IMG/VR virus record: IMGVR_UViG_3300031419_000581
Origin: a virus
Lineage: Duplodnaviria; Heunggongvirae; Uroviricota; Caudoviricetes
Strand: one strand, 5' to 3'
DNA: 64,000 bases
Part shown: positions 2,409 to 22,077 of the stretch, piece by piece
How the letters are laid out: the number at the start of each line of letters is the position of its first letter
Position numbering within the stretch: position 1 is the stretch's first letter
Program-made: the position numbers and the translations under genes
The notes under the pieces: generated by a model
Told to the model about the DNA's origin: nothing
The model's database searches: none
What the model saw: only the letters and a program-made list of their open reading frames with translations

Positions 2409-3089
2409 ATGAAAAAAACCATGTTTGCAGTAAGTGCTATTGCATTAAGCCTTATGTCAGCTTCCGTTTTTGCAGGACCTGCTGAGAAGTCAGAAGCTGC
2501 GCAGGAAAAATTTGTAAGTTATAGTTTTTACGGTGTGGCTGTTCCAGCAGATAATGCAAAGAATATTAAATACACCGATTTACAGAAAATTAAAGACCAG
2601 AAAGCTATGGCGGCTTATCTGAAAGATATTACCAAAAGTGAAAACGCAAAGCTGATTACTTCTGGTGGAGGCATGGATCTTTCGGGAAAAGATTTGGCTC
2701 TTAGTGTAAACAAAGAAATTCCGTATACCAAAAGTGTAACAATGAAAACTGATGCTGCAGATAAAACTTTAACGCAAACTGTGACTATGAAGCAGGATGT
2801 GTTTAATGAAGGCGTTAATCTATTAATGAATTCAAAAGAAGATAATGGTTTTATTCGCACAAAAATGAATCTTAATACAAATACACTGTTATTGATAACA
2901 AAAGGTGATGTAAAAGAGGGAACGCCGGATTCACTGGATACGCATTCAGTTAAAATAGATACATCATTTATCGTAAAACCTAATCAGGTAGTTAAGTTTG
3001 ATAGCCCTGTTTACGAGCGTGAAGGTAAAGAATATAAAGATATTTATTTCATTCAACAGAGCCTGGGAACAACTGCGGTTAAAGGTTAA
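2409..3089 (+). CDS. secreted protein of unknown function, tandem paralog A
   Basis: SD AAGGA. Signal peptide MKKTMFAVSAIALSLMSASVFA/GP. Colinear similarity to 3221..3862 (IPYTKSV vs IPYKEKV; VFNEGVNL vs VFKEGVKI; GFIRTKMN vs GLIKTKID; VVKFDSPV vs VIKFNSFV; KDIYFIQQS vs QNIYFIQEK). Confidence 0.8.
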   Translation: MKKTMFAVSAIALSLMSASVFAGPAEKSEAAQEKFVSYSFYGVAVPADNAKNIKYTDLQKIKDQKAMAAYLKDITKSENAKLITSGGGMDLSGKDLALSVNKEIPYTKSVTMKTDAADKTLTQTVTMKQDVFNEGVNLLMNSKEDNGFIRTKMNLNTNTLLLITKGDVKEGTPDSLDTHSVKIDTSFIVKPNQVVKFDSPVYEREGKEYKDIYFIQQSLGTTAVKG

Positions 3090-3220: not shown

Positions 3221-3862
3221 ATGAAAAAATTGATTATTGCATTATCTGTTATTTTTTCTGGCTTTGTTTCATTTTCAGCGTTGTCTGCTGATCTGTCTGA
3301 TAAAAGTGAAAAAGTTATTTATTATAATGTGATTGGAATTGAAGTACCCGTTGATAAAGCATCCAATATTAATAATACAGATTTAAAGAATATTCAGAAT
3401 GATGAAGAGCTATTTCATTATATGGAAGATTTATTGGATAAAAATACGGGAAATGTCATTCTTTTTTCTCAAGGTAAGATAATTAACAACAAACCTGTTG
3501 TCATTGAAAATTCGAATGATATTCCATATAAAGAGAAGGTTTCTATAACAAGTTTTGAAGACGGTTCACGCTTAACTGAAAACCAGGTGAATGTATTTAA
3601 AGAAGGTGTAAAAATTGTTTTAACTGCACAGGAAGAGAAAGGATTAATTAAGACAAAAATTGATTTCACTGATTCTCATGTGTTATCAACAAAAAGAAGT
3701 GAATATAGTAATACTGAGCCTGATTATATGAATATAAAATCAATTAATATGCGTCAAAATTTTATAACACAATCGGGTCAGGTTATAAAATTTAATTCTT
3801 TTGTTGTTTCGAAAGCGGGTAAGGATTATCAGAATATTTATTTTATTCAGGAAAAATTATAA
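3221..3862 (+). CDS. secreted protein of unknown function, tandem paralog B
   Basis: SD AAGGA. Signal peptide MKKLIIALSVIFSGFVSFSALSA/DL. Paralogous to 2409..3089 over its full length. Confidence 0.8.
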   Translation: MKKLIIALSVIFSGFVSFSALSADLSDKSEKVIYYNVIGIEVPVDKASNINNTDLKNIQNDEELFHYMEDLLDKNTGNVILFSQGKIINNKPVVIENSNDIPYKEKVSITSFEDGSRLTENQVNVFKEGVKIVLTAQEEKGLIKTKIDFTDSHVLSTKRSEYSNTEPDYMNIKSINMRQNFITQSGQVIKFNSFVVSKAGKDYQNIYFIQEKL

Positions 3863-4002: not shown

Positions 4003-6918
4003 ATGCCTTATATAAAAAATTCTCGTGGAGTCAAAGAAAAATATACTCCCGTAAAAATATCTAAAACCCTGTCTGAACTTTATTTCTATATGTATGGTAA
4101 AAAAGCCATTCAATACAGAGGTAAAGTTATAGAAATGACTAAGCGAATTTATGATCGTCTTGCTGATAGATTTGGTAATGATGAAACCAGTGAATGGCCT
4201 TTAGCTGAAATAAGAAATTACACAGAAAGAGAAGTCAGACAAAATACAAATGAAACAATCCACAAAACCTTTTTGTTATTAAATCCGCCTATTATTGATA
4301 GAAAGAATAAAGAAGAAGATGAAGATCTTTTAGGATATAGCTCCAGAAATATACTTGGAAACTTTGAAATTGATCCGGTATGGAATGTTATAACAGAACA
4401 GGAATTTGTTGAGCCTATTTTTGAAAATAATGAAACTCTTCTTGATTTAGGTACAACGATACGTATTAAAAAGCCCAGAACAGCAAAACCTGAAAAGAAA
4501 AAGAAAGAGGGTATTCGTCGCATTCATATTGCGAAGAGGCGTTCTGACTGGATCCAGTTCTGGAAAAAACTTTCTGTATTAACTGATCAAGTTTTCAATA
4601 TAAGCGTTCTGGAAAAAATTGTATCCAGAGAAGATAAACCTTATACCTTCGATTCAGAAGGTTGGTGGATATTTTGGGAAAATGCTATTTTTGAAGCCAT
4701 AAAAGAAGATCCTCGTTTATTCGTTTTATTAAGACTTGCGCAGCAAAGAAAGGCAAGAGCTTGTCTGGTGGGTCAGGATTGGTTGGATGGCTCAGGATTA
4801 AATCAAAAAGAAGGCGACATCCCCACAACGTTATATCTCATGGATCACAGTGAGCAAAACGATCTATATAGACTTTTGTGGAAGGAAAATATGAAACGTC
4901 TGGCAGAAGAAGGTCAGATAGATTCTATTCTGCTTAAAATATTTAATCTTGATAAATTATCCGTATTTATCGATCCCGGAAGAGATAAGCTTATTGACTG
5001 GCGCGGTTATCAGTATCTTAGATTAGGTGGCTGTCTCTGGGATATTCCGTCAAATCATAACTGGAATGTTATTACTTACCCTGGTATCAAAACACAGAAA
5101 GGCTCAAAAGAACCTCCTCAATGGGCATTTATGCGCCTTGCAATGGCATTGTGTGTTAATGAAGCAAACCCCTGGGGTTTTGTATTAGATTTTTATAATC
5201 AATTTTCACAACTTACGATTATTCCTTCTGAAAGTATGCTAAGGCAAGCGGGACGTAAACATGCAAATTTTCTTGAAGATAAATCAACAAAGGTTGAAGA
5301 TAAATTTGAGTCTATTTATGAAGCGATTCACCAGTCAGCAGTCGGAACAAAATGGACGGGAACGGTAAGTATGGACTGGTCAAAAGTCCGTTCAGTGGGG
5401 TCTCCTGTTAAAAATGGTGTGCGTAAATCCAGAGGAATATTACAGTTTGCCAAAACAATTAATGAATCATTGCTGGCGCAAAACAGAACCACTGATGACA
5501 GACCTGTAACAATGGCGCTTCCTCTGTGGCATTTGGAGGTATTAAAACTTATCAGAAATAAAGAAGAACAAATTCCAAATCTGCAATCTGTAATTTATGT
5601 AAGCGATTTATTTATGAAAAGACTGATGAATAACGAGTCATGGACATTATTCGATCCTGTATTTTTCCCTGAATTACAACAAAGCAGCAGTGAAGGTTAT
5701 TTGTTAGCAGAAAGTCTGGCTGATGAGCGAATGAAAATTTATAGTGGATGCGTTAAAAAAATAAGTTCACAAAAATTATGGGGAAGAATATTAAATAATT
5801 TACGTAAAGGCGAGCATTCTCTTGTTTTTGAAGATTCAAATAAAGCCTATGAGTTTTTCCCTAAAATAGCCCCAGGAATAACTGGTTTAGACGGTGTAGG
5901 TCTGTTTCCTTTGCCTGCTTCGAAAGATAATGAACTTTCATGGATAAAATGGCCGTCTATGGCGGTTAACTTATTAAAATGTATTGATGAAAAAGGCATG
6001 CCTCAATTAGATAAGTTAAATGAGATAGTCAGTTTTTCCCTAAGAATGCTGGATAATGCCATAACATTATCACTGAGTGATCAGGATAAGATAACCCATG
6101 ATTTTCGTTCTATTTGTCTGGGTAATATCGGATTTTATGAAGCTATAGATAAAATTATAGAGAATCAGGATGACGATAGAACATCGGTATTAAATCAATG
6201 GATTTCAGGTTTAACAGAAGCATGGTCTATGGCTATTTTAATAGCCGATCAGGAACTGGTAAAAGAAAGAGGTGCGGCAAAAGCATGTGAATTATATAAA
6301 TCAGATTTATCTTTATTTGACCCCATTAAAAATATGGAAAAACTGAAAGAAATGCGTGGTGGAGCATTAAAGATAAATATAAAACAGAATCCGGTCTGGA
6401 ATAGTTTAAATAAACAGGCTGAAATATCAGGATATCGTTTTATTAATAAAAGCTGCTGGGCTCCTTTTAAAAATATGGCAGGAATAGCGGGTGTTTCACC
6501 TGGTGGAATAGGTTCATTGCAGCCTGTTGAAAATATAGAAGATGAAAAAGGTATTTCTCGATGGATTCCTACTCCTTTATTATTAAATAAATGTTTTAGC
6601 TATCCTGACAAAATAAAAGAATATAATAAATCAATGAAACAACCGGGTGTGCCAAGGGTATGGGAGAGCAGTATAAACGATGTGGCGTATCCAAATGAAG
6701 AAAACTGGAAAATGCTAATGGAACAAGCTGCTTTAATACGTCCGTGGAACGATCAGGGTGTATCGGTAACATTACCTATTGGTTTACCTGTAAACAGATT
6801 GAATATATTAATACAGGAAGCCTGGTGGTATGGATTAAATGTAATAAGGTTTGAGAAAGCATTAAAACGAATTGAAAATAAAAATAATGATGAAGAAAAT
6901 GAAATTGAGGAAATATAA
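4003..6918 (+). CDS. ribonucleotide reductase large-subunit (NrdA/NrdJ-fold) homolog, apparently catalytically degenerate
   Basis: 971 aa. The block FMRLAMAL...IYEAIHQSAVGTKWTGTVSMDWSKVRSVGSPVKNG...LWHLEVLKLIRNK...YVSDLFMKRLMNNESWTLFDP is colinear with the RNR alpha core as I recall it (FMRVAM...IYEAIKDNALLSKYAGGLG.DW..VRA.GS.IKGTNG...WH.DI.EFL.LRKN...WIPDLFMKRV..DG.WTLF.P). The conserved SSC(F/Y)L cysteine is ANFLE here. GG(L/I)G is TGTVS. QGG.RKGA is DDRPVT. NLC.E is SICLG. The C-terminal YY and CxxC tail are absent. Confidence 0.6.
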   Translation: MPYIKNSRGVKEKYTPVKISKTLSELYFYMYGKKAIQYRGKVIEMTKRIYDRLADRFGNDETSEWPLAEIRNYTEREVRQNTNETIHKTFLLLNPPIIDRKNKEEDEDLLGYSSRNILGNFEIDPVWNVITEQEFVEPIFENNETLLDLGTTIRIKKPRTAKPEKKKKEGIRRIHIAKRRSDWIQFWKKLSVLTDQVFNISVLEKIVSREDKPYTFDSEGWWIFWENAIFEAIKEDPRLFVLLRLAQQRKARACLVGQDWLDGSGLNQKEGDIPTTLYLMDHSEQNDLYRLLWKENMKRLAEEGQIDSILLKIFNLDKLSVFIDPGRDKLIDWRGYQYLRLGGCLWDIPSNHNWNVITYPGIKTQKGSKEPPQWAFMRLAMALCVNEANPWGFVLDFYNQFSQLTIIPSESMLRQAGRKHANFLEDKSTKVEDKFESIYEAIHQSAVGTKWTGTVSMDWSKVRSVGSPVKNGVRKSRGILQFAKTINESLLAQNRTTDDRPVTMALPLWHLEVLKLIRNKEEQIPNLQSVIYVSDLFMKRLMNNESWTLFDPVFFPELQQSSSEGYLLAESLADERMKIYSGCVKKISSQKLWGRILNNLRKGEHSLVFEDSNKAYEFFPKIAPGITGLDGVGLFPLPASKDNELSWIKWPSMAVNLLKCIDEKGMPQLDKLNEIVSFSLRMLDNAITLSLSDQDKITHDFRSICLGNIGFYEAIDKIIENQDDDRTSVLNQWISGLTEAWSMAILIADQELVKERGAAKACELYKSDLSLFDPIKNMEKLKEMRGGALKINIKQNPVWNSLNKQAEISGYRFINKSCWAPFKNMAGIAGVSPGGIGSLQPVENIEDEKGISRWIPTPLLLNKCFSYPDKIKEYNKSMKQPGVPRVWESSINDVAYPNEENWKMLMEQAALIRPWNDQGVSVTLPIGLPVNRLNILIQEAWWYGLNVIRFEKALKRIENKNNDEENEIEEI

Positions 6919-7028
6919 AATAAGCCTGGCTTAATTGACTCAAAAGCAAAATCGTTTATTCTTTTATAGAGTCTAAATTTTCATAATAATAAATTAAATA
7001 TAAATTAAATAAAAAAGGTAGGGTTTTT

Positions 7029-8363
7029 GTGCAGATAAAATTTGGTTATGATTCGGCTACGCTGAAAAGTGGTCAGCCCAAAGAAATAATATGGGATTCT
7101 CAAAGATTAATAAATGGTCACGTATTAATTATGGGTAAAAGTGGTACGGGTAAAACATTTACCCTGAAAAAGATGTTAAATCAATTATCGAGCCAGACAA
7201 ATGGAAATTTTCGTTGTCATATAATGGATGTTCATGGGGATATTGATATAGAAGGTTCTTCCACTGTAAAGTTCTCAGAATCAACGGATTATGGATTTAA
7301 TCCTTTAAAAATAAACCCAGATCCTGATTTTGGTGGAGTAAGAAAACGTATTCAATCATTTATTTCAGCCTTGGGTAGAACCGGTTTTAAGTTGGGTCCA
7401 AAACAGGAAGCAGCACTACGAAATGTATTGAATGATTTATATTCTGCCAATGGTTTTTATGACGGTGATCCTAAATCATGGAAATTAAATGATGGAGTAA
7501 AAAGAGCTTACGATAAAAAAAATCCGACAATGGAAGATGCTGTGCGTTATGCTAATTCGAAGTTAAAATCCATGATGCTTGGAACCTCTTCTGCAGCAAT
7601 TACAGCACTGGAAAAATTAAACCGTAAGCAGGCTCAGTTTTATAAAAAAATGAAGCAGGTAAATAAATCATCTCATGATCCTGTTGAAGTCGAAATATTA
7701 AAAAAAGAAGTAGAGAAACTATCGAATGAAGCTCAGACATTATTTGAAGAGCATTTAAAAAATATTCAAACAGGATTTGAATTTACTGACTTGATGAAGT
7801 ATGATTCTAAAGAGGTTATGAAATCTGTTGTGGACAGGCTGGAAAACCTGAATAATATCGGTATATTCAAGCCTAAAAATCCACCGTTTGATCCGAAGAA
7901 TCCGATATGGCGTTATGATATAAAATCATTATCAACGGATGAAAAAAGGCTTTTTGTTTCTTTTATTCTGGAAGCAATTTTTCACAAAGCGGTTCAGCGT
8001 GGTGTTCAAAGTGATGTTGTTGAAGTTGTTATTCTGGACGAAGCGCACTTATTCCTGACAGCAGATGACGATAACCCAATTAATATTATTGCGAAAGAAG
8101 CAAGAAAATTTGGTCTTGGATTATTTGCAGCAAGTCAGTCACCTACTCACTTCTCGGATGACTTTTTGTCAAACGTAAGTACGAAGATCATTTTAGGTAT
8201 TGACCAGATGTACTGGGATAATTCAGTCAGGAAACTTAAAATGGATCAGGCTGCTCTTGAATGGCTGGTGCCACATAAAAGTCTGTTAATACAATTAAAT
8301 AACAAGGGTGAAACGAGAAATCGTTTTATATGGGCAGTCAATGATGTCTATGGCAGAAAATGA
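7029..8363 (+). CDS. P-loop ATPase, HerA/FtsK-like (DUF87-type)
   Basis: GTG start after AAGGTAG. Walker A HVLIMGKSGTGKTF, Walker B VVILDEAHLF, then EARKFGLGLFAASQSP. This is the usual layout of HerA/VirB4/FtsK-superfamily NTPases. No TM segments. Confidence 0.6.
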   Translation: MQIKFGYDSATLKSGQPKEIIWDSQRLINGHVLIMGKSGTGKTFTLKKMLNQLSSQTNGNFRCHIMDVHGDIDIEGSSTVKFSESTDYGFNPLKINPDPDFGGVRKRIQSFISALGRTGFKLGPKQEAALRNVLNDLYSANGFYDGDPKSWKLNDGVKRAYDKKNPTMEDAVRYANSKLKSMMLGTSSAAITALEKLNRKQAQFYKKMKQVNKSSHDPVEVEILKKEVEKLSNEAQTLFEEHLKNIQTGFEFTDLMKYDSKEVMKSVVDRLENLNNIGIFKPKNPPFDPKNPIWRYDIKSLSTDEKRLFVSFILEAIFHKAVQRGVQSDVVEVVILDEAHLFLTADDDNPINIIAKEARKFGLGLFAASQSPTHFSDDFLSNVSTKIILGIDQMYWDNSVRKLKMDQAALEWLVPHKSLLIQLNNKGETRNRFIWAVNDVYGRK

Positions 8364-8547
8364 GTTAACAGTGAAAACGGAGGAAACAGAAAAGAATGGA
8401 CTCTCCTGTATTCCTTCACCTTGTTTAGTGCCATCTAAACGCTTATTAATGCAATTGCATAGTAAAGGTGAAAAAAGAAATAAAAGAAATGGTTTCACGT
8501 GGGTCAAAAATCGTAATGATATTTATAATATGGAGGAAATTATATGA
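8341..8547 (+). CDS. small ORF carrying a diverged copy of the upstream ATPase C-terminus
   Basis: Its frame is offset by one nucleotide from 7029..8363. Encodes ...LVPSKRLLMQLHSKGEKRNKRNGFTWVKNRNDIY, which resembles the ATPase end LVPHKSLLIQLNNKGETRNRFIWAVNDVY. Its stop overlaps the next ATG (ATGA at 8544) just after GGAGGA. The start is uncertain: ATGs at 8341, 8344 and 8350, GTG at 8308. Confidence 0.35.
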   Translation: MMSMAENELTVKTEETEKNGLSCIPSPCLVPSKRLLMQLHSKGEKRNKRNGFTWVKNRNDIYNMEEII

Positions 8548-8951
8548 CCGAACAAAAAAAATCAGTAAAAAGCAGTGGTCAAAATGGAATTTTAGTAGAT
8601 ATCATCGTTCACCCTATGGTAATGCGCTGGCTTTCTCAGACGGCGCATCAGGATACAGATGGGTTTTGCAGACTGGTGGAATCCAATAATAGTCGTTTTC
8701 GTAAAATGTTTGGTGTTCCGACCTGGCATGCTGACGGGAAAGACGGCTGGACGGAAGGCTGGGCAATCAGTGAAAGTGGATTAAACTGGATGGTCTTAAG
8801 TAGTCCAAAGACTTCGACGAGTCCTGGTATAACAAAATTTAAGATAGTATTATCTATTTCTGAAGAAGAATTTAAAAATAATGCAAAAATGGCGTTAGGT
8901 ATAACAGAATATTTGCAGTATTTAATGCAAACTTTAATGGGTGAAGAATAA
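8544..8951 (+). CDS. hypothetical protein
   Basis: 135-aa ORF, GGAGGA SD, ATGA overlap with the preceding ORF. W-rich (WHADGKDGWTEGWAISESGLNW). No family recognised. Confidence 0.6.
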   Translation: MTEQKKSVKSSGQNGILVDIIVHPMVMRWLSQTAHQDTDGFCRLVESNNSRFRKMFGVPTWHADGKDGWTEGWAISESGLNWMVLSSPKTSTSPGITKFKIVLSISEEEFKNNAKMALGITEYLQYLMQTLMGEE

Positions 8952-8964
8952 CGGAGGAAGAGTT

Positions 8965-9318
8965 ATGAGTTTACTTATCGATGATAGTGCAAAAAAACGA
9001 CTTGAAGAATTACATAAAGAAGATAAAGCCTCTAACCGGATATTGTTGATTGACCTAAATCAGTCAGGATGTTCTGGCTGGGCATATCACTATTCATGGC
9101 TTGTTTCTCAGGAAGCGTCAAAGAAAAAACTGATCGTTGAAGAAATTGAAATGAACGGTCATCATTTTAGTGTAGGCTATCCAGAAATGTATGCTGATTA
9201 TTTTAAAGGCGCGACATTAATTTATAAAAAAGAAGGATTAAATACGCGTCTGTTAATTGATAATCCGAATGTCATGTCTGAGTGTGGGTGTGGTGAAAGT
9301 GTCAATTTTCAGCAATAG
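8965..9318 (+). CDS. A-type iron-sulfur cluster carrier (HesB/IscA/ErpA family)
   Basis: ATG at 8965 after GGAGGA (the track's GTG at 8941 is less likely). Family signature GCSG...NPN...CGCGES with the three conserved cysteines. Confidence 0.75.
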   Translation: MSLLIDDSAKKRLEELHKEDKASNRILLIDLNQSGCSGWAYHYSWLVSQEASKKKLIVEEIEMNGHHFSVGYPEMYADYFKGATLIYKKEGLNTRLLIDNPNVMSECGCGESVNFQQ

Positions 9319-9470
9319 TTTTAAAAAAACTAAATAGCAATCTGATAAATGAGAAGCGTTTTTAATAAAGCGCTTTTTTTTATGTTCAAAATATCAAAAA
9401 AGCTGTATTAATTGAAAAAAAGCGGTTAAAATAATAGAGATGATAATTCAAAACATAAAAGGTAATTGAT

Positions 9471-11231
9471 ATGCAAATTTCAGTATCATATGAAGATATG
9501 AAAAAACAGGTTCCTGATCTGGTTGAATCTGTTGAAAGTCGTGCAAAAGGTGTAAAAAATGGTAGTTTTGATGGTTCTTCTGATCCACAAAGCTGGAAGT
9601 GGTTTGTGGAAGTTGAAGATAAGTTTGCAGATAATAACATTCCTGCACTTATGTATTACAATCAGCCTATCGATAAAAACTCACCAGATGTTAAAAGTGA
9701 AAGATTGGTCGATAATGACAAGCTTGCATTGTCAAACGAAGATTTTGTAAAAAAATATATGTCTATGGGAGTCATTAACGCCCGTTTAGGTGTTATTGCA
9801 GGAAAAGCAAAAGTTGATACCTCTATTACGCATGTGGATAGCATTCCAACAGATCTTCTGCAAATGTATGCTATGAAAGAAAACAATGCTCAGCCTACCG
9901 GTCATAAATTGTTGTCAGTTTATAAGGGAGAAAGAAATCCAGGTCAGCCAGGTGTTGCAAAAGTTGCTATTGTTGCGGCATTTGAAAAAGAAGATGGTCA
10001 GTTCATGTTGTTAACCAAAGAAAGCAACAATATGGAGAGACTGTTTATTCGTGGGATTGATGAAAAAACCAATAGTGTTATGACTTATGGAACAATTCTG
10101 GAAAATTCGCAAGGCTGGGATGTTGAAGAAGGTAAATACTGGAAAGACGTTTCTACTGTTGGCTGGAAAAGAATTTCAGCAGATGAAATTGAGAAAAAAT
10201 TTGCAAAAGATGTTCTGAAAGAAGAATTCGATTTCGACAAATGGTCAAATCTTTCAAAAGGCATGGCTCTGGCAGCAGTATTCGGTGATGATTTTACAGT
10301 AGATGCAAGGGTAGCTCCATTTGACGCAGATGCACTAAATGATTCGGTTCGTTATTTTGAATATGGTGAAGAATTATCTGATCGCGAGTTTATCGAAAAT
10401 AAATGGGCGATGTTTGATAAGTTAACGCCAGATGGTCTCGACAGAGGCAAAAAGCCTATGTCAATTGGAGAGATCATCAAAAATGGTGATACTGAAGGTC
10501 TGCGTATTATGATTGAAGAATATAAAACAACAGGTGCGTATGACAAAATCTTTGTTGAAAATAACGAAGAACAAAATATTTCAACGCTGCTGTTCCATAC
10601 TGCAGCAACGGGTACACCTGAAATGATGCAAATGCTGATTGATCTTGGCGCTGACCCAAGCCGTGAATTTATTAAAGAAATTGCAAAAGGTATGTTCTCG
10701 CATTATCCAGTTATGCATAATGCAATTATGGGTGAAAATACAGAAGTTGTTAAATTCATGATTGAGAAAGGTTATGAAGGTATTGAAAATCGTTTCACCA
10801 GCACTGAGACATGGTTAATGTTTGCCGTAACAGAAGGTAAACTGAAAAGTGCTGATATGCTTCTTGAAATGGGTGCTGACATTAATGCTACAACTTTCCA
10901 TGGCAATACGGCATTGCATCTTGCGGCAAGTAAGGCAAATGCATTAGCTCTGGAATGGCTGATTAAGCATGACGCAGATCCAACGATTGAAAATCCTGCT
11001 GGAAAATTATATTCAGAAATGTTGGATGATGGTGAAGAATGGAATGAACTGTATAATTTCCTGGAAGATTACCGTGAAGCGAAAGAAAATGGAACTGAGT
11101 TCACGTTGCCAGAAGATTTTTATGATCGTGTAACTTACAAAAAAGAAGATGACGCAGCAGAACAACAGAAAAATATGCTTGCTCAGTTGCTTGCCAAAAT
11201 GCCAGGCGCTTCTAAAAAGCCAAGTCCATAA
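9471..11231 (+). CDS. ankyrin-repeat protein with a large unknown N-terminal domain (no R-[LIM] tail)
   Basis: 586 aa. The C-terminal third has clear ANK repeats (STLLFHTAATGTPEMMQMLIDLGADP; HYPVMHNAIMGENTEVVKFMIEKG; GNTALHLAASKANALALEWLIKHDADP). Ends ...ASKKPSP. Its codon usage looks less AT-skewed than the tail-family genes. Confidence 0.8.
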   Translation: MQISVSYEDMKKQVPDLVESVESRAKGVKNGSFDGSSDPQSWKWFVEVEDKFADNNIPALMYYNQPIDKNSPDVKSERLVDNDKLALSNEDFVKKYMSMGVINARLGVIAGKAKVDTSITHVDSIPTDLLQMYAMKENNAQPTGHKLLSVYKGERNPGQPGVAKVAIVAAFEKEDGQFMLLTKESNNMERLFIRGIDEKTNSVMTYGTILENSQGWDVEEGKYWKDVSTVGWKRISADEIEKKFAKDVLKEEFDFDKWSNLSKGMALAAVFGDDFTVDARVAPFDADALNDSVRYFEYGEELSDREFIENKWAMFDKLTPDGLDRGKKPMSIGEIIKNGDTEGLRIMIEEYKTTGAYDKIFVENNEEQNISTLLFHTAATGTPEMMQMLIDLGADPSREFIKEIAKGMFSHYPVMHNAIMGENTEVVKFMIEKGYEGIENRFTSTETWLMFAVTEGKLKSADMLLEMGADINATTFHGNTALHLAASKANALALEWLIKHDADPTIENPAGKLYSEMLDDGEEWNELYNFLEDYREAKENGTEFTLPEDFYDRVTYKKEDDAAEQQKNMLAQLLAKMPGASKKPSP

Positions 11232-11317: not shown

Positions 11318-11787
11318 AAAATTTTAAATTTTTATAAACTGAGACTACGTTTATAACGTTGCTTCTTTTGACAGAGATTGTCATAATTACTGCGTTAGTA
11401 AAATTACAGTAATTTGGCCTCTATCGTATCCACTTTGAAGTAAAGCAACACGACCGCATTTATCAAGGTCCTGCATTTGACCTGTCATATATTGCTACTC
11501 AACTTATCATAATCTGTTATTCCAGTTATTAATATGTGTTATATCAGCATTATGTAAATCAACTGATTAAAAATCAGACTCGGTTTATCCAAGTTTTAGG
11601 TCGCTTTATCACAATATACCGCCGCGCACGGCAAAATCGTAAATGTTTATTTTATTATTGTTGAAGGGTTTTATTATGAATTGTATTAATAGTGTACTTT
11701 TATAAGGTAACAATGAAGAACTGTCAATGGTCTTCTCTAAAAAATGTCTAATAAGTAAGCAAACGAATGAATTATAAAATAAAGTTC

Positions 11788-11817
11788 TTGCAAAGAAAAA
11801 AAGAACTACGCTATAAT
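11788..11817 (+). promoter_or_regulatory. sigma70 promoter of clpP
   Basis: TTGCAA (11788-11793), 18-nt spacer, TATAAT (11812-11817). It lies inside the ORF track's N-terminal extension, which argues against the 11767 start. Confidence 0.6.
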
Positions 11818-11850
11818 AGCGCCATGTTGAACAATAAAAGGAAAGTAAAT

Positions 11851-12435
11851 ATGGCTGTTATTCCAATGGTAATTGAGCAAACTTCTCGCGGTGAACGTTC
11901 TTATGATATTTATTCCCGCCTGCTAAAAGAGCGTATTATCTTTCTGAATGGTCAGGTTGAAGACAATATGGCAAACGTGATTGTTGCACAAATGCTGTTC
12001 CTGGAAGCAGAAAATCCTGAAAAAGATATTTATCTGTATATCAACTCGCCAGGTGGTGTCATTACTGCTGGTATGGCTATTTTCGATACCATGAAATTCA
12101 TTAAGCCTGATGTCAGCACCATTTGTCAGGGTCAGGCATGTTCTATGGGTGCTTTCCTGCTGGGTGCAGGCACCAAAGGCAAGCGTTTTTGTCTGCCAAG
12201 TGCACGAGTTATGATCCATCAGCCTCTGGGTGGTTATCAGGGTCAGGCGACAGACATTGAAATTCATGCGCGTGAGATGCTGAAAGTTAAAGCACGAATG
12301 AATGAGCTTATGGCTGAACATACCGGTAAGCCGGTTGAAGAGATTGAACGTGATACTGAACGAGATCGTTTCATGTCAGCACAGGAAGCTATGGACTATG
12401 GTCTGATTGACGGTATTCTTGATAAGCGTAAATAA
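11851..12435 (+). CDS. clpP: ATP-dependent Clp protease proteolytic subunit ClpP
   Basis: [28 protein letters not shown]...[14 protein letters not shown]...[11 protein letters not shown]...[20 protein letters not shown]... is colinear and mostly identical to E. coli ClpP as I recall it, with the catalytic Ser (SMG), His and Asp contexts present. Start at 11851 (AAGGA SD) or 11824. No clpX follows. Confidence 0.95.
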
Positions 12436-17734: not shown

Positions 17735-18910
17735 GTGAAGAAAAAAATTATATTATTAAGTCTTTTATCTGGCCTGTTGTCTGTTTCTGCTTTTTCTCAT
17801 GCTGACATGAAATTTTTAACAGCGAATGATTATAATAACAGTCAAATAAGAGGCTTTAATATTGGTGTTCTGGAAACTCACAGCGACACCTACTACAAAG
17901 AATTAAGTGAAACTAAAATTAATGCAGTAAGGGTAATTGTCCCTTTCAGACGTTGTACCTTAGAAACACAACAACCAAAGGATATTGATAAAAAGAAAAT
18001 TACCAGTGTTAATGATGTCAAAGCTGATGCTATGACAGGTGTGCCTAAATGTGTTTATGAAATATCTCCTGAAAACAGTGATAAATTCAAAGCATTATTG
18101 AAAAAAGCCGTTGAGTATAATTTCTATGTTATTCCTGTTGCTGAATTCCAGCAAAATCCTGCGGGTGATTTCTGGACAGTCCCTAAGCTTCAACAGGGAC
18201 TTACAGAAGCCTGGAAAGACTTTGCAAATCAATATAAAGAATATTCGGTAATAGCAGGTTATGATCTTATGGATAATCCTTCTGCTGAGGGACTTCCTGC
18301 CGGTTCGAATGTCAGTGAATACTGGCAAAAGGGTGCGAGTTACATGATTCAGGGCATACGTTCTGTTGATAAAAAACATACAATTATTTATCCTATGGCT
18401 CCTTCTGGCATGCCTGTTGCCTTTAAAGATTTCAAACCTTTTGAAGATAAAAACGTGGTTTACGGTATAAATATGTATTATCCACTGGATCTTACTATGC
18501 AGGGAACCAGTGAAAACTTTTCTTATCGTATACCTTATCCAGCAGGTCTTGAATATGGCATACAGCCTATTCCTAATCAACCTCCTCGCGTAATAGATGT
18601 AAATGATTTAAGATTATATCTTCAGGATGCAGGATTATTTGCAAAAACAAACAATGTTCCGGTTATGGTTCTTGAATTTGGTATCGTCCATTATGCTCCT
18701 AATGGTTCTTCGTTCCGTTATGTCAGTGACACAACAAAGATATTTGAAGACAATGGCTGGTCGTGGACTTATCAGGGGTTCCGGGTTTCAGCAGCATTTG
18801 ATCCTTATATAGGTTCTGATGACCCTGAAAATACTACGCGTAGTTTTACGTCTCCGATTATGAACGTACTAACTTCTTATTTCCAGAAAAACAGTTTATA
18901 TTATAAATAA
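17735..18910 (+). CDS. secreted glycoside hydrolase family 5 (cellulase-superfamily)-like protein
   Basis: GTG start after AGGAGAG. Signal peptide MKKKIILLSLLSGLLSVSAFSHA. GH5-like landmarks INAVRVIVPF, GYDLMDNPS (where NEP is expected), NMYYP, VMVLEFGI (nucleophile Glu context) and GWSWTYQGF. Confidence 0.5.
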   Translation: MKKKIILLSLLSGLLSVSAFSHADMKFLTANDYNNSQIRGFNIGVLETHSDTYYKELSETKINAVRVIVPFRRCTLETQQPKDIDKKKITSVNDVKADAMTGVPKCVYEISPENSDKFKALLKKAVEYNFYVIPVAEFQQNPAGDFWTVPKLQQGLTEAWKDFANQYKEYSVIAGYDLMDNPSAEGLPAGSNVSEYWQKGASYMIQGIRSVDKKHTIIYPMAPSGMPVAFKDFKPFEDKNVVYGINMYYPLDLTMQGTSENFSYRIPYPAGLEYGIQPIPNQPPRVIDVNDLRLYLQDAGLFAKTNNVPVMVLEFGIVHYAPNGSSFRYVSDTTKIFEDNGWSWTYQGFRVSAAFDPYIGSDDPENTTRSFTSPIMNVLTSYFQKNSLYYK

Positions 18911-19025
18911 AAAGAACTGATTCTGGTTGTTATTTAAGCAATTAGCAGCCAGAATCATAGTATGTTCTTGATTATTCCTCAGAATAAGCTATGTATAGAT
19001 AAACCCATAATCAGAAAGCAGAACT

Positions 19026-19595
19026 ATGATAACAGACAAATATTTACAAAAAACATTTACAGAAAGACCGATTATCTGGCTGGTTACTCACCCTTATCCT
19101 GATCAGGATAATACAGCATGGGTATTAGATGAAAAAGAGCAATCGTGGAATCATATAAAAACAGGTTGGCTCGATATTAATGATTGTTGTGTCGGTTTAC
19201 CCGAAAAGCCCTGGCCGACAGAAATACAGGAGTGGGTTGCCTCTGGTATAAATCCTATCTTATATCCTATTAACGATTTTAAATATGTATCTGAAAAATA
19301 CAAAGAATGGTGGAAGGAACTTTACAAAAACGACCTGTTTCGTATATGGGTGTTAGGGTGGAATCCGGTCACTGATATTAATTTAAAAAAACAATGGAAA
19401 AAAGCAGAATTAGAATATAAAATAATGATTCTTGAAACAACCATTGAATTAAAGAAGAAAATGAAATTACGTCCTACAAAAGACAGATTTGATTATGTTT
19501 GTAAGGATGTTATTGCTTCTGTTGAAAAACAGGAAAACAAATTACTTCATGGTGTTATTATATCAATGGTAGAAGAATGGAAAAAGGAGGCATAG
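19026..19595 (+). CDS. hypothetical protein
   Basis: 189-aa W-rich ORF. Its stop sits in the loop of the terminator at 19581. No family recognised. Confidence 0.55.
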   Translation: MITDKYLQKTFTERPIIWLVTHPYPDQDNTAWVLDEKEQSWNHIKTGWLDINDCCVGLPEKPWPTEIQEWVASGINPILYPINDFKYVSEKYKEWWKELYKNDLFRIWVLGWNPVTDINLKKQWKKAELEYKIMILETTIELKKKMKLRPTKDRFDYVCKDVIASVEKQENKLLHGVIISMVEEWKKEA

Positions 19596-19606
19596 CCTCC
19601 TTTTTT
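19581..19606. terminator. bidirectional rho-independent terminator
   Basis: A5-GGAGGC-ata-GCCTCC-T6, between the convergent 19026..19595 and the helicase gene. Confidence 0.85.
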
Positions 19607-19607
19607 A

Positions 19608-21890
19608 TTATTTGAAATAGTTTCTCTGCTTTTTAGAAATAGATTTTCCTTCAAGTTCTTTTTTTCTTACTGCGGCATGAAGCATTTCTTCAATTTTAGC
19701 ATTAAGTTTTGCATGCTGAATTAAGGCATCTTCATTCCCAGTATAAACGTCAGGAAAACGCTGAGTCAGCCAGCGATAAACAGTAAGTAGTTTTACTTTT
19801 TTCTCTGCATCCAGCAATGCTTCGTCTTTACTGTGATAACTTTCTTTTTCAGTCATAGCTTCTTTAACAATTTCCCAGTCAATAATCTGTCCCTGAGAAT
19901 GACGAATCGCCCAGTTTAACAAAATTTCTTCATCATCAATATCGTTAGAATCGACCGGAGCTGTTGCATAGGAATATTGCTCAGTAATAGAAAGATTATT
20001 AAGATTAACAAGTTTATAAGAACGTTCTATTGCATCAGTCATAGGGCATGCTTTGAAAACAGGATGATTTTTCAACAAGTGATTAGCGAAGAATGATAAC
20101 CATTGTGGAAGAGTGCCACCTAATTTTTCATGCCATAATGCAATCTGATCGGGTAGAGGCTGAACCCACCATTTTAAATCACGAGGAGGCTCGTCTTTTG
20201 AATCAAGAAGCTGCCAGAGCATAGCTTCATCATTATCCGACCATGTCGTCACGCCACCTTCAACAACCCAGCCTTTTCTGCCTGCACGGTTAGCAATTTG
20301 CCACACTTCGGAAGGTTTAAGTAGTCTTTCAACGTCACCATCAAATTTTACAAGTGTTGACAGTACAATACGTTTTATAGGAAGATTTAATCCCAACCCA
20401 ATAGCATCAGTTGCAATCAGATAGTCAGTCTCTCCGTCGCGGAATTTCCTTGCTTCTTCACGTCTGACCTCAGGGGAAAGGTGTCCATAAATAACCGAAA
20501 CTTTGAGTCCTCTTTGTTCAGCTTCTTCTTTCCATGCCAACACATCTTTACGTGAGAATGCAATGATTGCATCACCTTGTTGGACACGTTTCCATGACAT
20601 AAGTGCTTTATCTCGTCTTAACTCTTTTTCTGCTGTGAGTTTAACGACATTCAGTTCATCACCTAAATATTTAACCATACGTTCCACATAGGGTAATGCT
20701 GCCTCAGAACCCGTAAGTACTAATTGATTTGTTGGTGCTGAAAGAACGGCTTGTGTCCATGCCCAGCCACGACCAGGATCCGCAAGAAGCTGAACCTCAT
20801 CAAGAACAGAAGCGCCAACACGTTTGTTCCAGCGAGCCATTTCAACAGTAGAGGAAACAAAAGTGCTACCTAATGAACGGCGTCTTTCTTCACCTGTGAT
20901 AAGATCATTAAGTACGCCTTTTTCGAGTAGGGTCTCATGACCTTCAAGTGCTAAAAGTCGTAAAGGTGCAAGGTAATAGCCACTATCAGCAGCAGTAAGT
21001 ATCTGGAATGAACGATATGTTTTTCCTGTATTCGGTGGTCCCATAAAGAAAGTCCATACACGTTTTTCACTTCTTGCTATTTTAAAATGTTGTTCGAATT
21101 TATCAAAATTAACCAGTTTTTCTGCGGCGATCATTGCTGCTTCTTTTTCCTGACGCTTAATACGTGAGCTTTCTTTTTCAATAAAAGCAGTAAAAGCTGC
21201 CGTTATTTTTTTATGTTCATCACCAGAGAAATAGACCTTAGAAATTGTTTGTGTTAACCAGCTAAGCCATGGTGATTTTTGTGCATTATTTAAAAGGCTG
21301 ACTTTTTCAGACCAAACAGAAAAAATATTCGAATGTAAAAATGAGACAAGTTCTGAAAATTTGTTTTCAACCTGCAATTCTTTTTGAATCTCAGTTGAAT
21401 CGAGTTCTTTTGTATTGTGGTAAGCAAATACCCAGTTTTCAAAGGTTTTTTTAGGAACCGGAATATAAAAGAGTGAATTGAGAACAACAGTACTATCAGA
21501 AAGGTTTTCCAGCCATTCTTTTTTGGTGATAACAGCAACCATATCTTTTTTATTATCTTTGAAGGATACGCCCTCTATAATACGATGAAGTTTAGCTGCT
21601 TCAATCCACTCATTGGTAGCCTGTTCTTTATTAAGTTGATTGATATGTTTTTTGAAGGCATTCAGAACTTTATTCCAGTCTTCTGGTTTTATCCAAAGGG
21701 AATTAACGGATATTTTATCGGTTTGGGAATGATATAACTGAGGGGTCAGGCATGTCCAGCCTTCATTAATTTTACTTTCGTAAAAGGCATTATCTTTTTT
21801 ATTAACTTTTGTGATTCCGTCCAACAGGGGTAATTCAATCCATTCTTTTTCAGTAAGGTCGTCAAAGTTTGTAACACTGGAGAATTTCAT
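19608..21890 (-). CDS. SUV3-like superfamily-2 helicase with an N-terminal extension of about 270 aa
   Basis: Motif I GPPNTGKTY, motif II LDEVQ. C-terminal block VIYGHLSPEVRREEARKFRDGETDYLIATDAIGLGLNLPIKRIVL...QIANRAGRKG matches the SUV3/SUPV3L1 pattern as I recall it (VIYGSLPP...KFN......LVATDAIGMGLNL.I.R.IF...Q..GRAGR). Confidence 0.65.
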   Translation of the reverse strand: MKFSSVTNFDDLTEKEWIELPLLDGITKVNKKDNAFYESKINEGWTCLTPQLYHSQTDKISVNSLWIKPEDWNKVLNAFKKHINQLNKEQATNEWIEAAKLHRIIEGVSFKDNKKDMVAVITKKEWLENLSDSTVVLNSLFYIPVPKKTFENWVFAYHNTKELDSTEIQKELQVENKFSELVSFLHSNIFSVWSEKVSLLNNAQKSPWLSWLTQTISKVYFSGDEHKKITAAFTAFIEKESSRIKRQEKEAAMIAAEKLVNFDKFEQHFKIARSEKRVWTFFMGPPNTGKTYRSFQILTAADSGYYLAPLRLLALEGHETLLEKGVLNDLITGEERRRSLGSTFVSSTVEMARWNKRVGASVLDEVQLLADPGRGWAWTQAVLSAPTNQLVLTGSEAALPYVERMVKYLGDELNVVKLTAEKELRRDKALMSWKRVQQGDAIIAFSRKDVLAWKEEAEQRGLKVSVIYGHLSPEVRREEARKFRDGETDYLIATDAIGLGLNLPIKRIVLSTLVKFDGDVERLLKPSEVWQIANRAGRKGWVVEGGVTTWSDNDEAMLWQLLDSKDEPPRDLKWWVQPLPDQIALWHEKLGGTLPQWLSFFANHLLKNHPVFKACPMTDAIERSYKLVNLNNLSITEQYSYATAPVDSNDIDDEEILLNWAIRHSQGQIIDWEIVKEAMTEKESYHSKDEALLDAEKKVKLLTVYRWLTQRFPDVYTGNEDALIQHAKLNAKIEEMLHAAVRKKELEGKSISKKQRNYFK

Positions 21891-22032
21891 ATAGTCGGTT
21901 CCTCATGTATGTTGTTTTTTTTTACTGCAAGATAGGGTCTGAGGCTACTCCTTTTTAAATCCAACATAATCTATTAATAACAGAAAAATAAATAAAGATC
22001 CAATAATAAAATGCAATATTTTAAGAGAATAT

Positions 22033-22061
22033 TAAAAAAAGAGACGTTGACGTCTCTTTTT
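22033..22061. terminator. rho-independent terminator downstream of the FtsH-like gene
   Basis: A7-GAGACG-ttga-CGTCTC-T6. Confidence 0.8.
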
Positions 22062-22077
22062 TATTTAGGATTATATA

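Follow-up and report, generated by a model that had tools for sequence, protein, structure and literature searches.

What does the large subunit of a ribonucleotide reductase (RNR) do once the residues of its radical chemistry have been exchanged for others? The question is raised by an operon in IMG/VR record IMGVR_UViG_3300031419_000581, a 64,000-nucleotide stretch of DNA (the window) with a G+C content of ~32%. The operon encodes an RNR-like protein (RNRL), an ATPase of the FtsK/HerA superfamily, a small conserved partner protein (SM) and an IscA-like Fe-S carrier. A first-pass annotation had described five co-directional genes here, each with a Shine-Dalgarno sequence, and all the open reading frames (ORFs) were found where it had placed them (Table 1). 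We find that RNRL is very probably a conserved pseudoenzyme without RNR activity. With a probability of roughly 0.4 for the mechanism as a whole, we propose that it acts as a nucleotide-responsive regulator or scaffold of an active ATPase motor that works together with SM.

The protein had been recognised earlier as an RNR alpha homologue, and Pfam, alignment with a solved structure and superposition of the predicted fold all agree. Pfam finds the barrel domain (Ribonuc_red_lgC, E = 5.2e-36) and the all-alpha domain (Ribonuc_red_lgN, E = 2.8e-7). The closest solved relative is the class Ia NrdA of Pseudomonas aeruginosa (PDB 5im3; E = 2e-41), with which RNRL is collinear over residues 282-956. 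Every NCBIfam NrdA model falls far short of its cut-off; no match exceeds 174 bits (PRK07207, cut-off 965), all cut-offs are at least 341 bits, and TIGR02506 gives 142 bits against 341. An AlphaFold2 (AF2) model calculated from 24 family sequences has pLDDT = 86.4 and pTM = 0.80. Searched with Foldseek, it has 5im3 as its top match among solved structures (E = 1e-43, TM-score 0.65/0.72), and it superimposes on E. coli R1 with a TM-score of 0.78 normalised to the target length. By all three approaches (Pfam, AF2 and Foldseek) RNRL has the R1 fold, i.e. an all-alpha domain and a ten-stranded alpha/beta barrel.

At the N-terminus, residues 1-95 can be aligned with ATP cone 1 of true NrdAs. In the AF2 model they form a beta-hairpin followed by helices (strands 3-5 and 11-13, helices 16-57, 67-81 and 84-93), and Pfam recognises an ATP-cone in 4 of the 24 family members (best E = 3.3e-6). 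RNRL descends from a class Ia NrdA with several ATP cones, the P. aeruginosa type represented by 5IM3 and PRK07207. It shares with these enzymes the two main domains, the ATP-cone-like N-terminus, the loop-1 and specificity residues, and the motifs EPPQW.MR.AM, DW..VR..GS, LP.WH, SDLFM.R, R.LDN, ERG and DQ. It differs from them in having ~160 residues of new sequence in place of the second ATP cone.

The catalytic residues were placed by alignment with true NrdAs, together with a table of motifs over ~65 RNRL members; their numbering follows E. coli NrdA. QLSSCYL of the true enzymes is replaced by NFLEDKS, which puts D426 at the position of C225, and AGGLG is replaced by TGTVS. Loop 2 is remodelled from NQGGKRKGA to NRTTDDR-P, and the phosphate loop from IAPTATI to WAPFKNM. 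The thiyl loop SSNLCTEI corresponds to GLDGVGLF, with N437, C439 and E441 replaced by D630, V632 and L634 respectively. AVCNLGS becomes IKWPSMA, exchanging C462 for W650, and KTTYYLR becomes NVIRFEK, so that R949 and F950 stand in place of Y730 and Y731. The C-terminus has no CxxC motif and ends in an acidic, cysteine-free tail that is disordered in the AF2 model.

The first-pass annotation had reported substitution of the SSC, GGLG and QGG.RKGA landmarks, and the NrdA alignment confirms each of them (LED, TGTV and NRTTDDR-P). Loss of the Tyr-Tyr relay and of the CxxC tail was also correctly read, the alignment showing VIRFEK and no C-terminal cysteine before the acidic end. For the thiyl loop the reported loss of Asn and Glu stands, and the Cys is gone as well, but the position was misplaced. 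The segment SICLG, which had been taken for the loop, aligns with RPVGLG of the NrdAs and was rejected; the real counterpart is LDGVGLF, following G628.

None of the ~65 RNRL members has a cysteine at the positions of C225, C439 or C462. The substitutes are nearly fixed: D for C225, D or E for N437, V or I for C439, W for C462, and R followed by F or L for the tyrosine pair. The E441 position holds L, S or A. RNRL thus has neither the thiyl cysteine nor the N/E pair beside it, and the redox cysteines, the Tyr-Tyr relay and the CxxC tail of NrdA are gone as well. It also has no adjacent nrdB. As had been noted from this sequence before, no gene for a beta subunit, NrdI or NrdH accompanies it; Pfam scans of the window flanks found no nrdB, nrdI or nrdH, nor were these present within 8-10 kb of the module at related loci. 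Since all the residues of radical chemistry and disulfide turnover have been exchanged for conserved non-redox residues, RNRL cannot reduce ribonucleotides, and we hold its assignment as a conserved pseudoenzyme with high confidence.

The loss of all the catalytic residues might be taken to mark a decaying, functionless nrdA pseudogene. That explanation is effectively refuted by reading frames that are intact across lineages, by the confidently predicted fold, and by 86 invariant columns among 24 RNRL sequences, which are 31-77% identical to that of the window. A word-indexed search returned 25 close relatives scoring 417-2197 bits; below these came a gap, with genuine RNRs at ≤150 bits. When 1.84 billion representatives were searched exhaustively with a profile, ~23 full-length clusters (counted at 50% identity) were obtained at 678-1350 bits and ~6 degenerate ones at 257-370 bits, with true RNRs beginning at ≤293 bits. 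RNRL is intact at 900-1000 amino acids in dozens of lineages with G+C contents from 25 to 69%. Purifying selection acts on the family.

Two RNRL sequences carry the names of well-known bacteria. One is a fragment on a 1.1-kb contig (QFPK01000155.1) binned as a 'Sphingomonas' metagenome-assembled genome (MAG), and the other is a full-length protein labelled Escherichia coli in a third-party annotation (TPA) assembly (HCJ8468348.1). Both labels look like mis-binning or contamination. Two RNRL peptide patterns applied to the GTDB species representatives matched the 'Sphingomonas' MAG fragment only, although the patterns are too strict for absence to be claimed from this.

Conservation within RNRL is concentrated in three regions: residues 421-510 (conservation profile 0.67-0.68), 811-840 (WAPF...GVSPGGIG) and 901-930. 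In RNR terms these comprise the first catalytic cysteine, loops 1 and 2, the substrate-phosphate loop and an inner barrel strand. D433, D458, W459, R463 and G466 remain invariant even when true NrdAs are added to the alignment. The DWxxVRxxG motif is kept in all RNRL members, including the most eroded, very AT-rich ones in which the C-terminal half is no longer recognisable. From their position in the motifs we take D433 and R463 to correspond to D232 and R262 of the specificity (effector) site of E. coli NrdA.

We compared the gene neighbourhood over the contigs encoding relatives, plus 80 metagenomic loci drawn from the ATPase alignment. ORFs were called, hidden Markov models (HMMs) of the four proteins were searched, and all neighbours were clustered. 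Among loci whose ATPase is roughly ≥56% identical to that of the window, the order RNRL-ATPase-SM is found in 15 distinct loci with G+C contents of 25-69% (the window, L001, L002, L005, L007, L008, L010, L012, L016, L020, L021, L023, L026, L027 and L030). SM starts between -22 and +33 nt from the end of the ATPase gene in nearly all related loci, a spacing that indicates translational coupling of the two. The linkage of RNRL to the ATPase is looser, with gaps of 0-834 nt, and in L030 two same-strand genes lie between them. The core of the module is RNRL, ATPase and SM, in conserved order, and the module is chromosomal and vertically inherited. In many loci the synteny extends to an ankyrin-repeat gene, ClpP and two orphan genes; clpP lies in the block around the module in nine loci.

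In the window the operon genes are co-directional and preceded by Shine-Dalgarno-like sequences. The ATPase gene has a GTG start behind AAGGTAGGG. The intergenic gaps are 110 nt (RNRL-ATPase), 180 nt (ATPase-SM) and 13 nt (SM-IscA-like). The exceptional 180-nt gap arose when the 3' end of the ATPase gene was partly duplicated in tandem. The ORF lying there overlaps the SM start codon as well as the region of the ATPase stop; by BLASTP it is 53% identical over 34 residues (E = 1e-7) to ATPase residues 413-441, i.e. its last ~30 codons. It has no counterpart in the other loci of the comparison. In its 79-aa form we rejected it as a real gene, and regard it as a decayed duplicate. Of the five genes originally proposed, one is this duplicated ATPase end, which leaves RNRL, ATPase, SM and the carrier. 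The idea of a conserved five-gene neighbourhood holds for the RNRL-ATPase-SM order; the IscA-type gene and the small ORF are not part of the core.

SM is ~125 amino acids long across its family and somewhat longer in the window. W29, N48 and W73 are invariant in its alignment (A4). It has no match in Pfam or PADLOC, and its AF2 model is weak (pLDDT = 57.8).

The ATPase matches Pfam DUF87 with E = 3.7e-12. Walker A (G36-T43, GKSGTGKT), Walker B (D337-E338, within (V/I)(L/I)DEAH) and the putative arginine finger R359 in EARKFG are invariant in the alignment, and by these motifs the protein is predicted to be catalytically competent. It is conserved far above its partners, with 64-84% identity across lineages compared with 33-77% for the partners; >120 clusters lie at 61-84% identity, and 1107 proteins are found at E ≤1e-3. 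Between the window and L001 the ATPases are 67% identical, RNRL 36% and SM 28%. The protein had been described before as a soluble HerA/FtsK-like ATPase. The superfamily core and the intact Walker motifs bear this out, yet the protein departs from the canonical HerA design. With Walker A starting at residue 36 of 444, a HAS barrel could not be accommodated ahead of it, and the first ~140 positions of the HerA models are left unaligned. These models score 45-48 bits against cut-offs of 800-970, and the VirB4 models 35 bits against 643. The matches to the HerA, VirB4, CedB/CedD and DndH models are all partial, with scores no higher than about a tenth of the respective cut-offs. Identification as a type IV coupling protein or VirB4 was rejected: the former would have an N-terminal membrane anchor and the latter ~800 residues including the VirB4 N-domain, whereas this protein has 444 residues and a hydrophilic N-terminus, and there are no type IV secretion genes in the flanks.

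The arrangement of a P-loop ATPase gene beside that of a large partner in one operon recalls the HerA complexes, i.e. HerA-NurA in repair, and Sir2-HerA and DUF4297-HerA in defence. The first-pass annotation had accordingly raised defence against phage as a speculative role. In such an anti-phage or anti-plasmid system of the HerA-plus-effector type, RNRL would sense or deplete nucleotides. Known defence systems do pair HerA-type ATPases with effectors, the window ATPase does match HerA and DndH/DptH models in PADLOC and NCBIfam, and relatives of it are found on mobile elements, some beside a Tad2-like gene. Yet the matches are partial and score 45-78 bits against cut-offs of ≥800; those in PADLOC-DB 2.0 are generic ones to HerA, DndH and mad8, and RNRL, SM and the IscA-like protein have none there. 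Pfam and PADLOC scans of the ATPase neighbours revealed no NurA, Sir2 or DUF4297 domain, and no nuclease, Sir2, TIR or NADase effector is present. The module differs from the HerA complexes in lacking the HAS barrel and a nuclease or NADase partner, in its very high conservation, in its fixed chromosomal position and in HerA scores of about one twentieth of the cut-offs. Defence genes are typically patchy and fast-evolving, in contrast to a chromosomal synteny that spans G+C contents of 25-69% and a slowly diverging ATPase. Moreover, RNRL is missing from the plasmid and IMG/VR collections. Given the PADLOC result, the fixed context, the slow divergence of the ATPase, the lack of an effector and the absence of mobile RNRL, a defence island is improbable, and this earlier suggestion is not upheld.

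Relatives of the ATPase at greater distance have a different setting. Those at 41-46% identity (loci L048-L087) are 490-505 amino acids long and lie in a context like that of integrative and conjugative elements (ICEs), with LPD1 polyvalent proteins, topoisomerase III, UvrD-type helicases, and DsbC-like and HTH_35 proteins. This longer version is annotated merely as 'DUF5710/DUF87/ATP-binding protein'. By tblastn, full-length relatives of 44-51% identity are carried by 145 plasmids, including those of Pseudomonas, Xanthomonas, Salmonella, Methylobacter and cyanobacteria. Examples of their neighbours (L089 and L090) are a MobH relaxase with TraD, or an HU-like gene with an LPD1 protein. One cyanophage carries a relative. 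The plasmid and ICE ATPases (of P. syringae and Xanthomonas, and that beside MobH/TraD on a Methylobacter plasmid) are thus full-length homologues at 41-51% identity with the same motifs, differing in length, in being borne on mobile elements, and in having neither RNRL nor SM. No counterpart of SM was found among their neighbours by hhalign. Searches for the RNRL family in the plasmid collection returned only true NrdA at ~26% identity, and the family was not found in IMG/VR. As these distant relatives sit among the DNA-processing genes of conjugative plasmids and ICEs, the motor most likely acts on DNA or nucleoprotein.

In four loci (L041, L044, L045 and L046) a 101-aa gene resembling Tad2 (Thoeris anti-defence 2, DUF2829) lies directly upstream of an ATPase homologue that is 51-52% identical to that of the window (at 9571-9876 in L045). 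It occupies the position that belongs to RNRL in the clade of the window, with BamA just upstream of it.

We can now return to the function of RNRL. Because it retains the remnant of an ATP cone, the loop-1 motif and conserved pocket elements, we propose it as a nucleotide-responsive subunit. RNRL would still bind nucleotides, using the ATP-cone-like N-terminus and the loop-1/specificity-site motif (D433, DW..VR463..GS), and its best-conserved stretches would line the former effector and substrate pockets. It would thereby serve as a regulatory or scaffold subunit, responsive to dNTP or ATP, of a ring ATPase that has SM as its obligate partner and works on DNA or nucleoprotein. The role of the module would be one of housekeeping rather than immunity, with the IscA-like carrier and, in other lineages, PilD as passengers of the operon. 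Nucleotide sensing had been the other role suggested for this locus by the first-pass annotation; it is plausible, with some support from the loop-1/specificity motif and the ATP-cone remnant. A more specific version is that of a dead RNR alpha subunit, still binding dNTP or ATP, that acts as a sensor of the nucleotide pool and gates the FtsK/HerA-type DNA motor and SM. We consider this possible, although on balance doubtful. If it were true, nucleotide supply would be coupled to the handling of the chromosome, in uncultured and probably host-dependent bacteria.

Several observations weigh against this proposal. RNRL is missing from L006, L028 and L029 despite sufficient upstream sequence, and L006 and L029 nevertheless keep SM. 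In L008 and L009 two genes of opposite strand separate RNRL from the ATPase. The RNRL-free ATPase loci and the intervening genes mean that RNRL may be dispensable for the ATPase. The assignment of the specificity site is based on E. coli numbering mapped by alignment rather than on a structural model with bound ligand. Both loop 2 and the APTAT loop that binds phosphate have been remodelled, so that any ligand may not be a nucleotide. Lastly, a pocket that is remodelled and conserved fits a new enzymatic activity equally well. We also asked whether the 523-aa protein encoded 3' of the ATPase gene in L006 might be a degenerate RNRL, and concluded that it is not.

Such a new activity, the leading alternative to our proposal, would make RNRL a neofunctionalised enzyme, in which the R1 barrel has acquired a non-radical active site built from D426, D630, W650, R949 and the new loops. 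Its ligand could be a nucleotide or some other phosphorylated compound, and the ATPase either a partner or a mere neighbour. The residues now at the former catalytic positions are near-invariant, and conservation is highest in elements of the former active site and phosphate loop (421-510, 811-840 and 901-930), which would be unusual for a pure scaffold. On the other hand no known catalytic motif can be recognised. Moreover, four family members (P0254, P0256, P0260 and P0268) and the RNRLs of L007, L016 and L020 have lost the C-terminal barrel signature while keeping residues 430-510 and adjacency to the ATPase. In these last three loci the upstream RNR-barrel protein can barely be aligned with the window RNRL, and the ATPase is still 64-67% identical. 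Degenerate RNRLs of this kind beside the ATPase speak against an essential role for the pocket as a whole, and we regard a new enzyme as rather unlikely.

The genes at the 3' end of the operon vary between lineages. In nine loci PilD lies directly 3' of SM, at -4 to +71 nt. In 13 loci there is an IscA-like gene no more than ~5 kb from the module, and in several of these it follows SM immediately. L001 has both, in the order RNRL, ATPase, SM, PilD, IscA. No cysteine is invariant in the alignments of RNRL, ATPase or SM, only C705 of RNRL being ~90% conserved. As the core proteins have no invariant cysteine, we treat the carrier and PilD as variable 3' members of the operon.

The proximity of PilD could alternatively reflect a role for the module as an accessory of type IV pili, type II secretion or DNA uptake. 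Here ATPase and SM would cooperate with the pilus machinery, for instance to translocate DNA, and RNRL would be an adaptor. Besides the nine loci with co-operonic PilD, PilMNOP adjoin the module in L007, L019 and L020 share two unannotated clusters (c130 and c131, minus strand) just downstream of SM, and cell-wall enzymes of the SLT and M23 types are found nearby. The best partial NCBIfam matches of the ATPase include the archaeal DNA-import ATPases CedD and CedB, but they reflect generic P-loop similarity, with scores near a tenth of the cut-off, and PilD is a general housekeeping peptidase. There is no pil gene near the module of the window itself, and HMMs of the PilD and SLT clusters match nothing in the 64 kb. 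We think a pilus connection improbable.

The carrier itself is a divergent member of the IscA/SufA/ErpA superfamily. It exceeds the thresholds of Pfam Fe-S_biosyn (E = 2.5e-10, 41 bits against 26.3) and TIGR00049 (60.2 bits against 58.8), and has all three ligand cysteines (C...CGC, in the motifs SGCSG and CGCGES). Against the equivalog models of IscA, SufA and ErpA it reaches only 46-55 bits, where 117-181 would be required. It shares the Fe-S_biosyn fold and the ligand cysteines with these proteins, but is not an orthologue of any of them and is present variably at the locus. An Fe-S or other metal-cofactor function of the module with this carrier would echo the arrangement of nrdAB-yfaE, and the intact ligand cysteines of a divergent carrier recurring in 13 loci would be in keeping with it. 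The lack of invariant cysteines in RNRL, ATPase and SM speaks against such a function. The carrier is moreover absent or replaced by PilD in many loci, and the neighbouring carrier in L006 and L007 looks like an ordinary ErpA. We judge a cofactor role very unlikely.

Inactive RNR large subunits have a precedent in viruses. The betaherpesvirus R1 homologues UL45 of human cytomegalovirus and M45 of murine cytomegalovirus are catalytically inactive and kept for a non-enzymatic role, acting as decoys in host signalling (PMC5469499). Like RNRL they are large-subunit homologues that have lost the catalytic residues, but they are of viral/eukaryotic R1 origin, act on host signalling proteins and have no ATPase partner. 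In a Foldseek search of BFVD with the RNRL model the first betaherpesvirus R1-like entries rank 28 and 31 (E = 1e-17 to 5e-17), other viral RNR large subunits reaching 4e-28. Since the betaherpesvirus proteins rank low and bacterial NrdA heads the solved structures, the loss of activity in RNRL was an independent event. A similar decoy secreted by a host-associated bacterium would fit a region rich in ankyrin-repeat proteins and orphan genes. It is hard to reconcile with the tight linkage of RNRL to the operon of a cytoplasmic ATPase, with the lack of any visible secretion signal or eukaryote-like interaction motif, and with structural matches led by bacterial NrdA rather than betaherpesvirus R1. 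We give it very little weight.

Apart from the herpesvirus work, literature searches on inactive bacterial RNRs and on a module combining RNR with HerA yielded only unrelated papers. Pfam, NCBIfam and PADLOC hold no curated family for RNRL as such, for SM or for the ATPase clade, in agreement with the earlier statement that no such bacterial module had been described. The finding joins two known kinds of system, dead RNR homologues and FtsK/HerA ATPase-partner modules, and there is a real chance that it represents a new machine. RNRL would be the first cellular counterpart of the dead R1 proteins of herpesviruses. RNR is among the best-studied of allosteric enzymes. If RNRL is a sensor or adaptor, then the allosteric apparatus has been reused on its own, and the R1 scaffold selected after its radical chemistry was discarded. 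The ATPase clade is large, uncharacterised and common on the conjugative plasmids and ICEs of Pseudomonas, Xanthomonas and other bacteria, so insight into its function would reach beyond this organism. The module is a compact one of three genes, and predictions of binding, complex formation and ATPase regulation are directly testable with recombinant proteins.

Table 1. Positions in the window of the operon, of elements within RNRL and of surrounding genes
Feature	Position	Strand	Length	Basis or remarks
RNRL (RNR-like protein, very probably a pseudoenzyme)	4003-6918	+	971 aa	Pfam, PDB 5im3, AF2/Foldseek
RNRL N-terminal ATP-cone-like domain	4003-4287	+	aa 1-95	NrdA alignment, Pfam ATP-cone in relatives, AF2
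RNRL best-conserved stretch	5263-5532	+	aa 421-510	LED, D433, TKWTGTV, DWSKVRSVGS, remodelled loop 2
RNRL thiyl finger-loop counterpart	5884-5907	+		GLDGVGLF; alignment with NrdAs
ATPase, soluble FtsK/HerA-superfamily (DUF87) P-loop protein	7029-8363	+	444 aa	Pfam DUF87
Remnant ORF, probably non-functional	8341-8547 (longer start 8308)	+	68-79 aa	BLASTP to ATPase
SM, small conserved partner protein	8544-8951	+	135 aa	without known family
IscA-like divergent A-type Fe-S carrier (IscA/SufA/ErpA superfamily)	8965-9318	+	117 aa	Pfam Fe-S_biosyn
Terminator-like hairpin	9351-9378	+		12-bp stem, then T run; operon end
Tandem paralogues	2409-3089 and 3221-3862		226 and 213 aa	directly upstream of operon
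Ankyrin-repeat protein gene	9471-11231			downstream of operon
clpP	11767-12435			downstream of operon
GH5 cellulase, Suv3-like DEXQ helicase (SUV3_C), FtsH-type AAA/M41 protease	17735-24081			syntenic with L002 1-5349
Dcm-type cytosine-5 DNA methyltransferase adjoining HflC/HflK-like band-7 protein	35803-36774 and 36861-37751			TIGR00675, 296 bits (methyltransferase)

The remainder of the window gives some indication of the organism. No tRNA or Rfam family reached threshold in the 64 kb, and 16 of 20 further ORFs were without match (10 were searched against NCBIfam and 10 against Pfam); the scarcity of family matches points to a lineage that has been little sampled. Its ankyrin-repeat proteins and orphan genes suggest that the organism lives in association with a host. 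The tandem paralogues upstream of the operon have signal-peptide-like starts and no convincing Pfam or NCBIfam family. Despite rearrangements, an ankyrin-repeat gene lies beside the module in eight loci (five of them distinct), as in L001, L005, L023, L026 and L008. Some loci have it upstream of RNRL in divergent orientation, and elsewhere it follows the IscA-like gene; its clustering may reflect the repeats alone.

The clpP gene of the window is not followed by clpX, and the public gene call begins at 11851 (194 aa) rather than at the start of the long ORF. Its product scores 364 bits against solved entries that we take to be those of E. coli, and 287-294 bits against those presumably from Coxiella, Francisella and Neisseria. 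Coarsely, these scores suggest a gammaproteobacterium-like organism. Further along lie the GH5 cellulase, the helicase and the protease, and beyond them the methyltransferase and its band-7 neighbour (Table 1). A helicase of the Suv3 type seems unusual for a bacterial gene.

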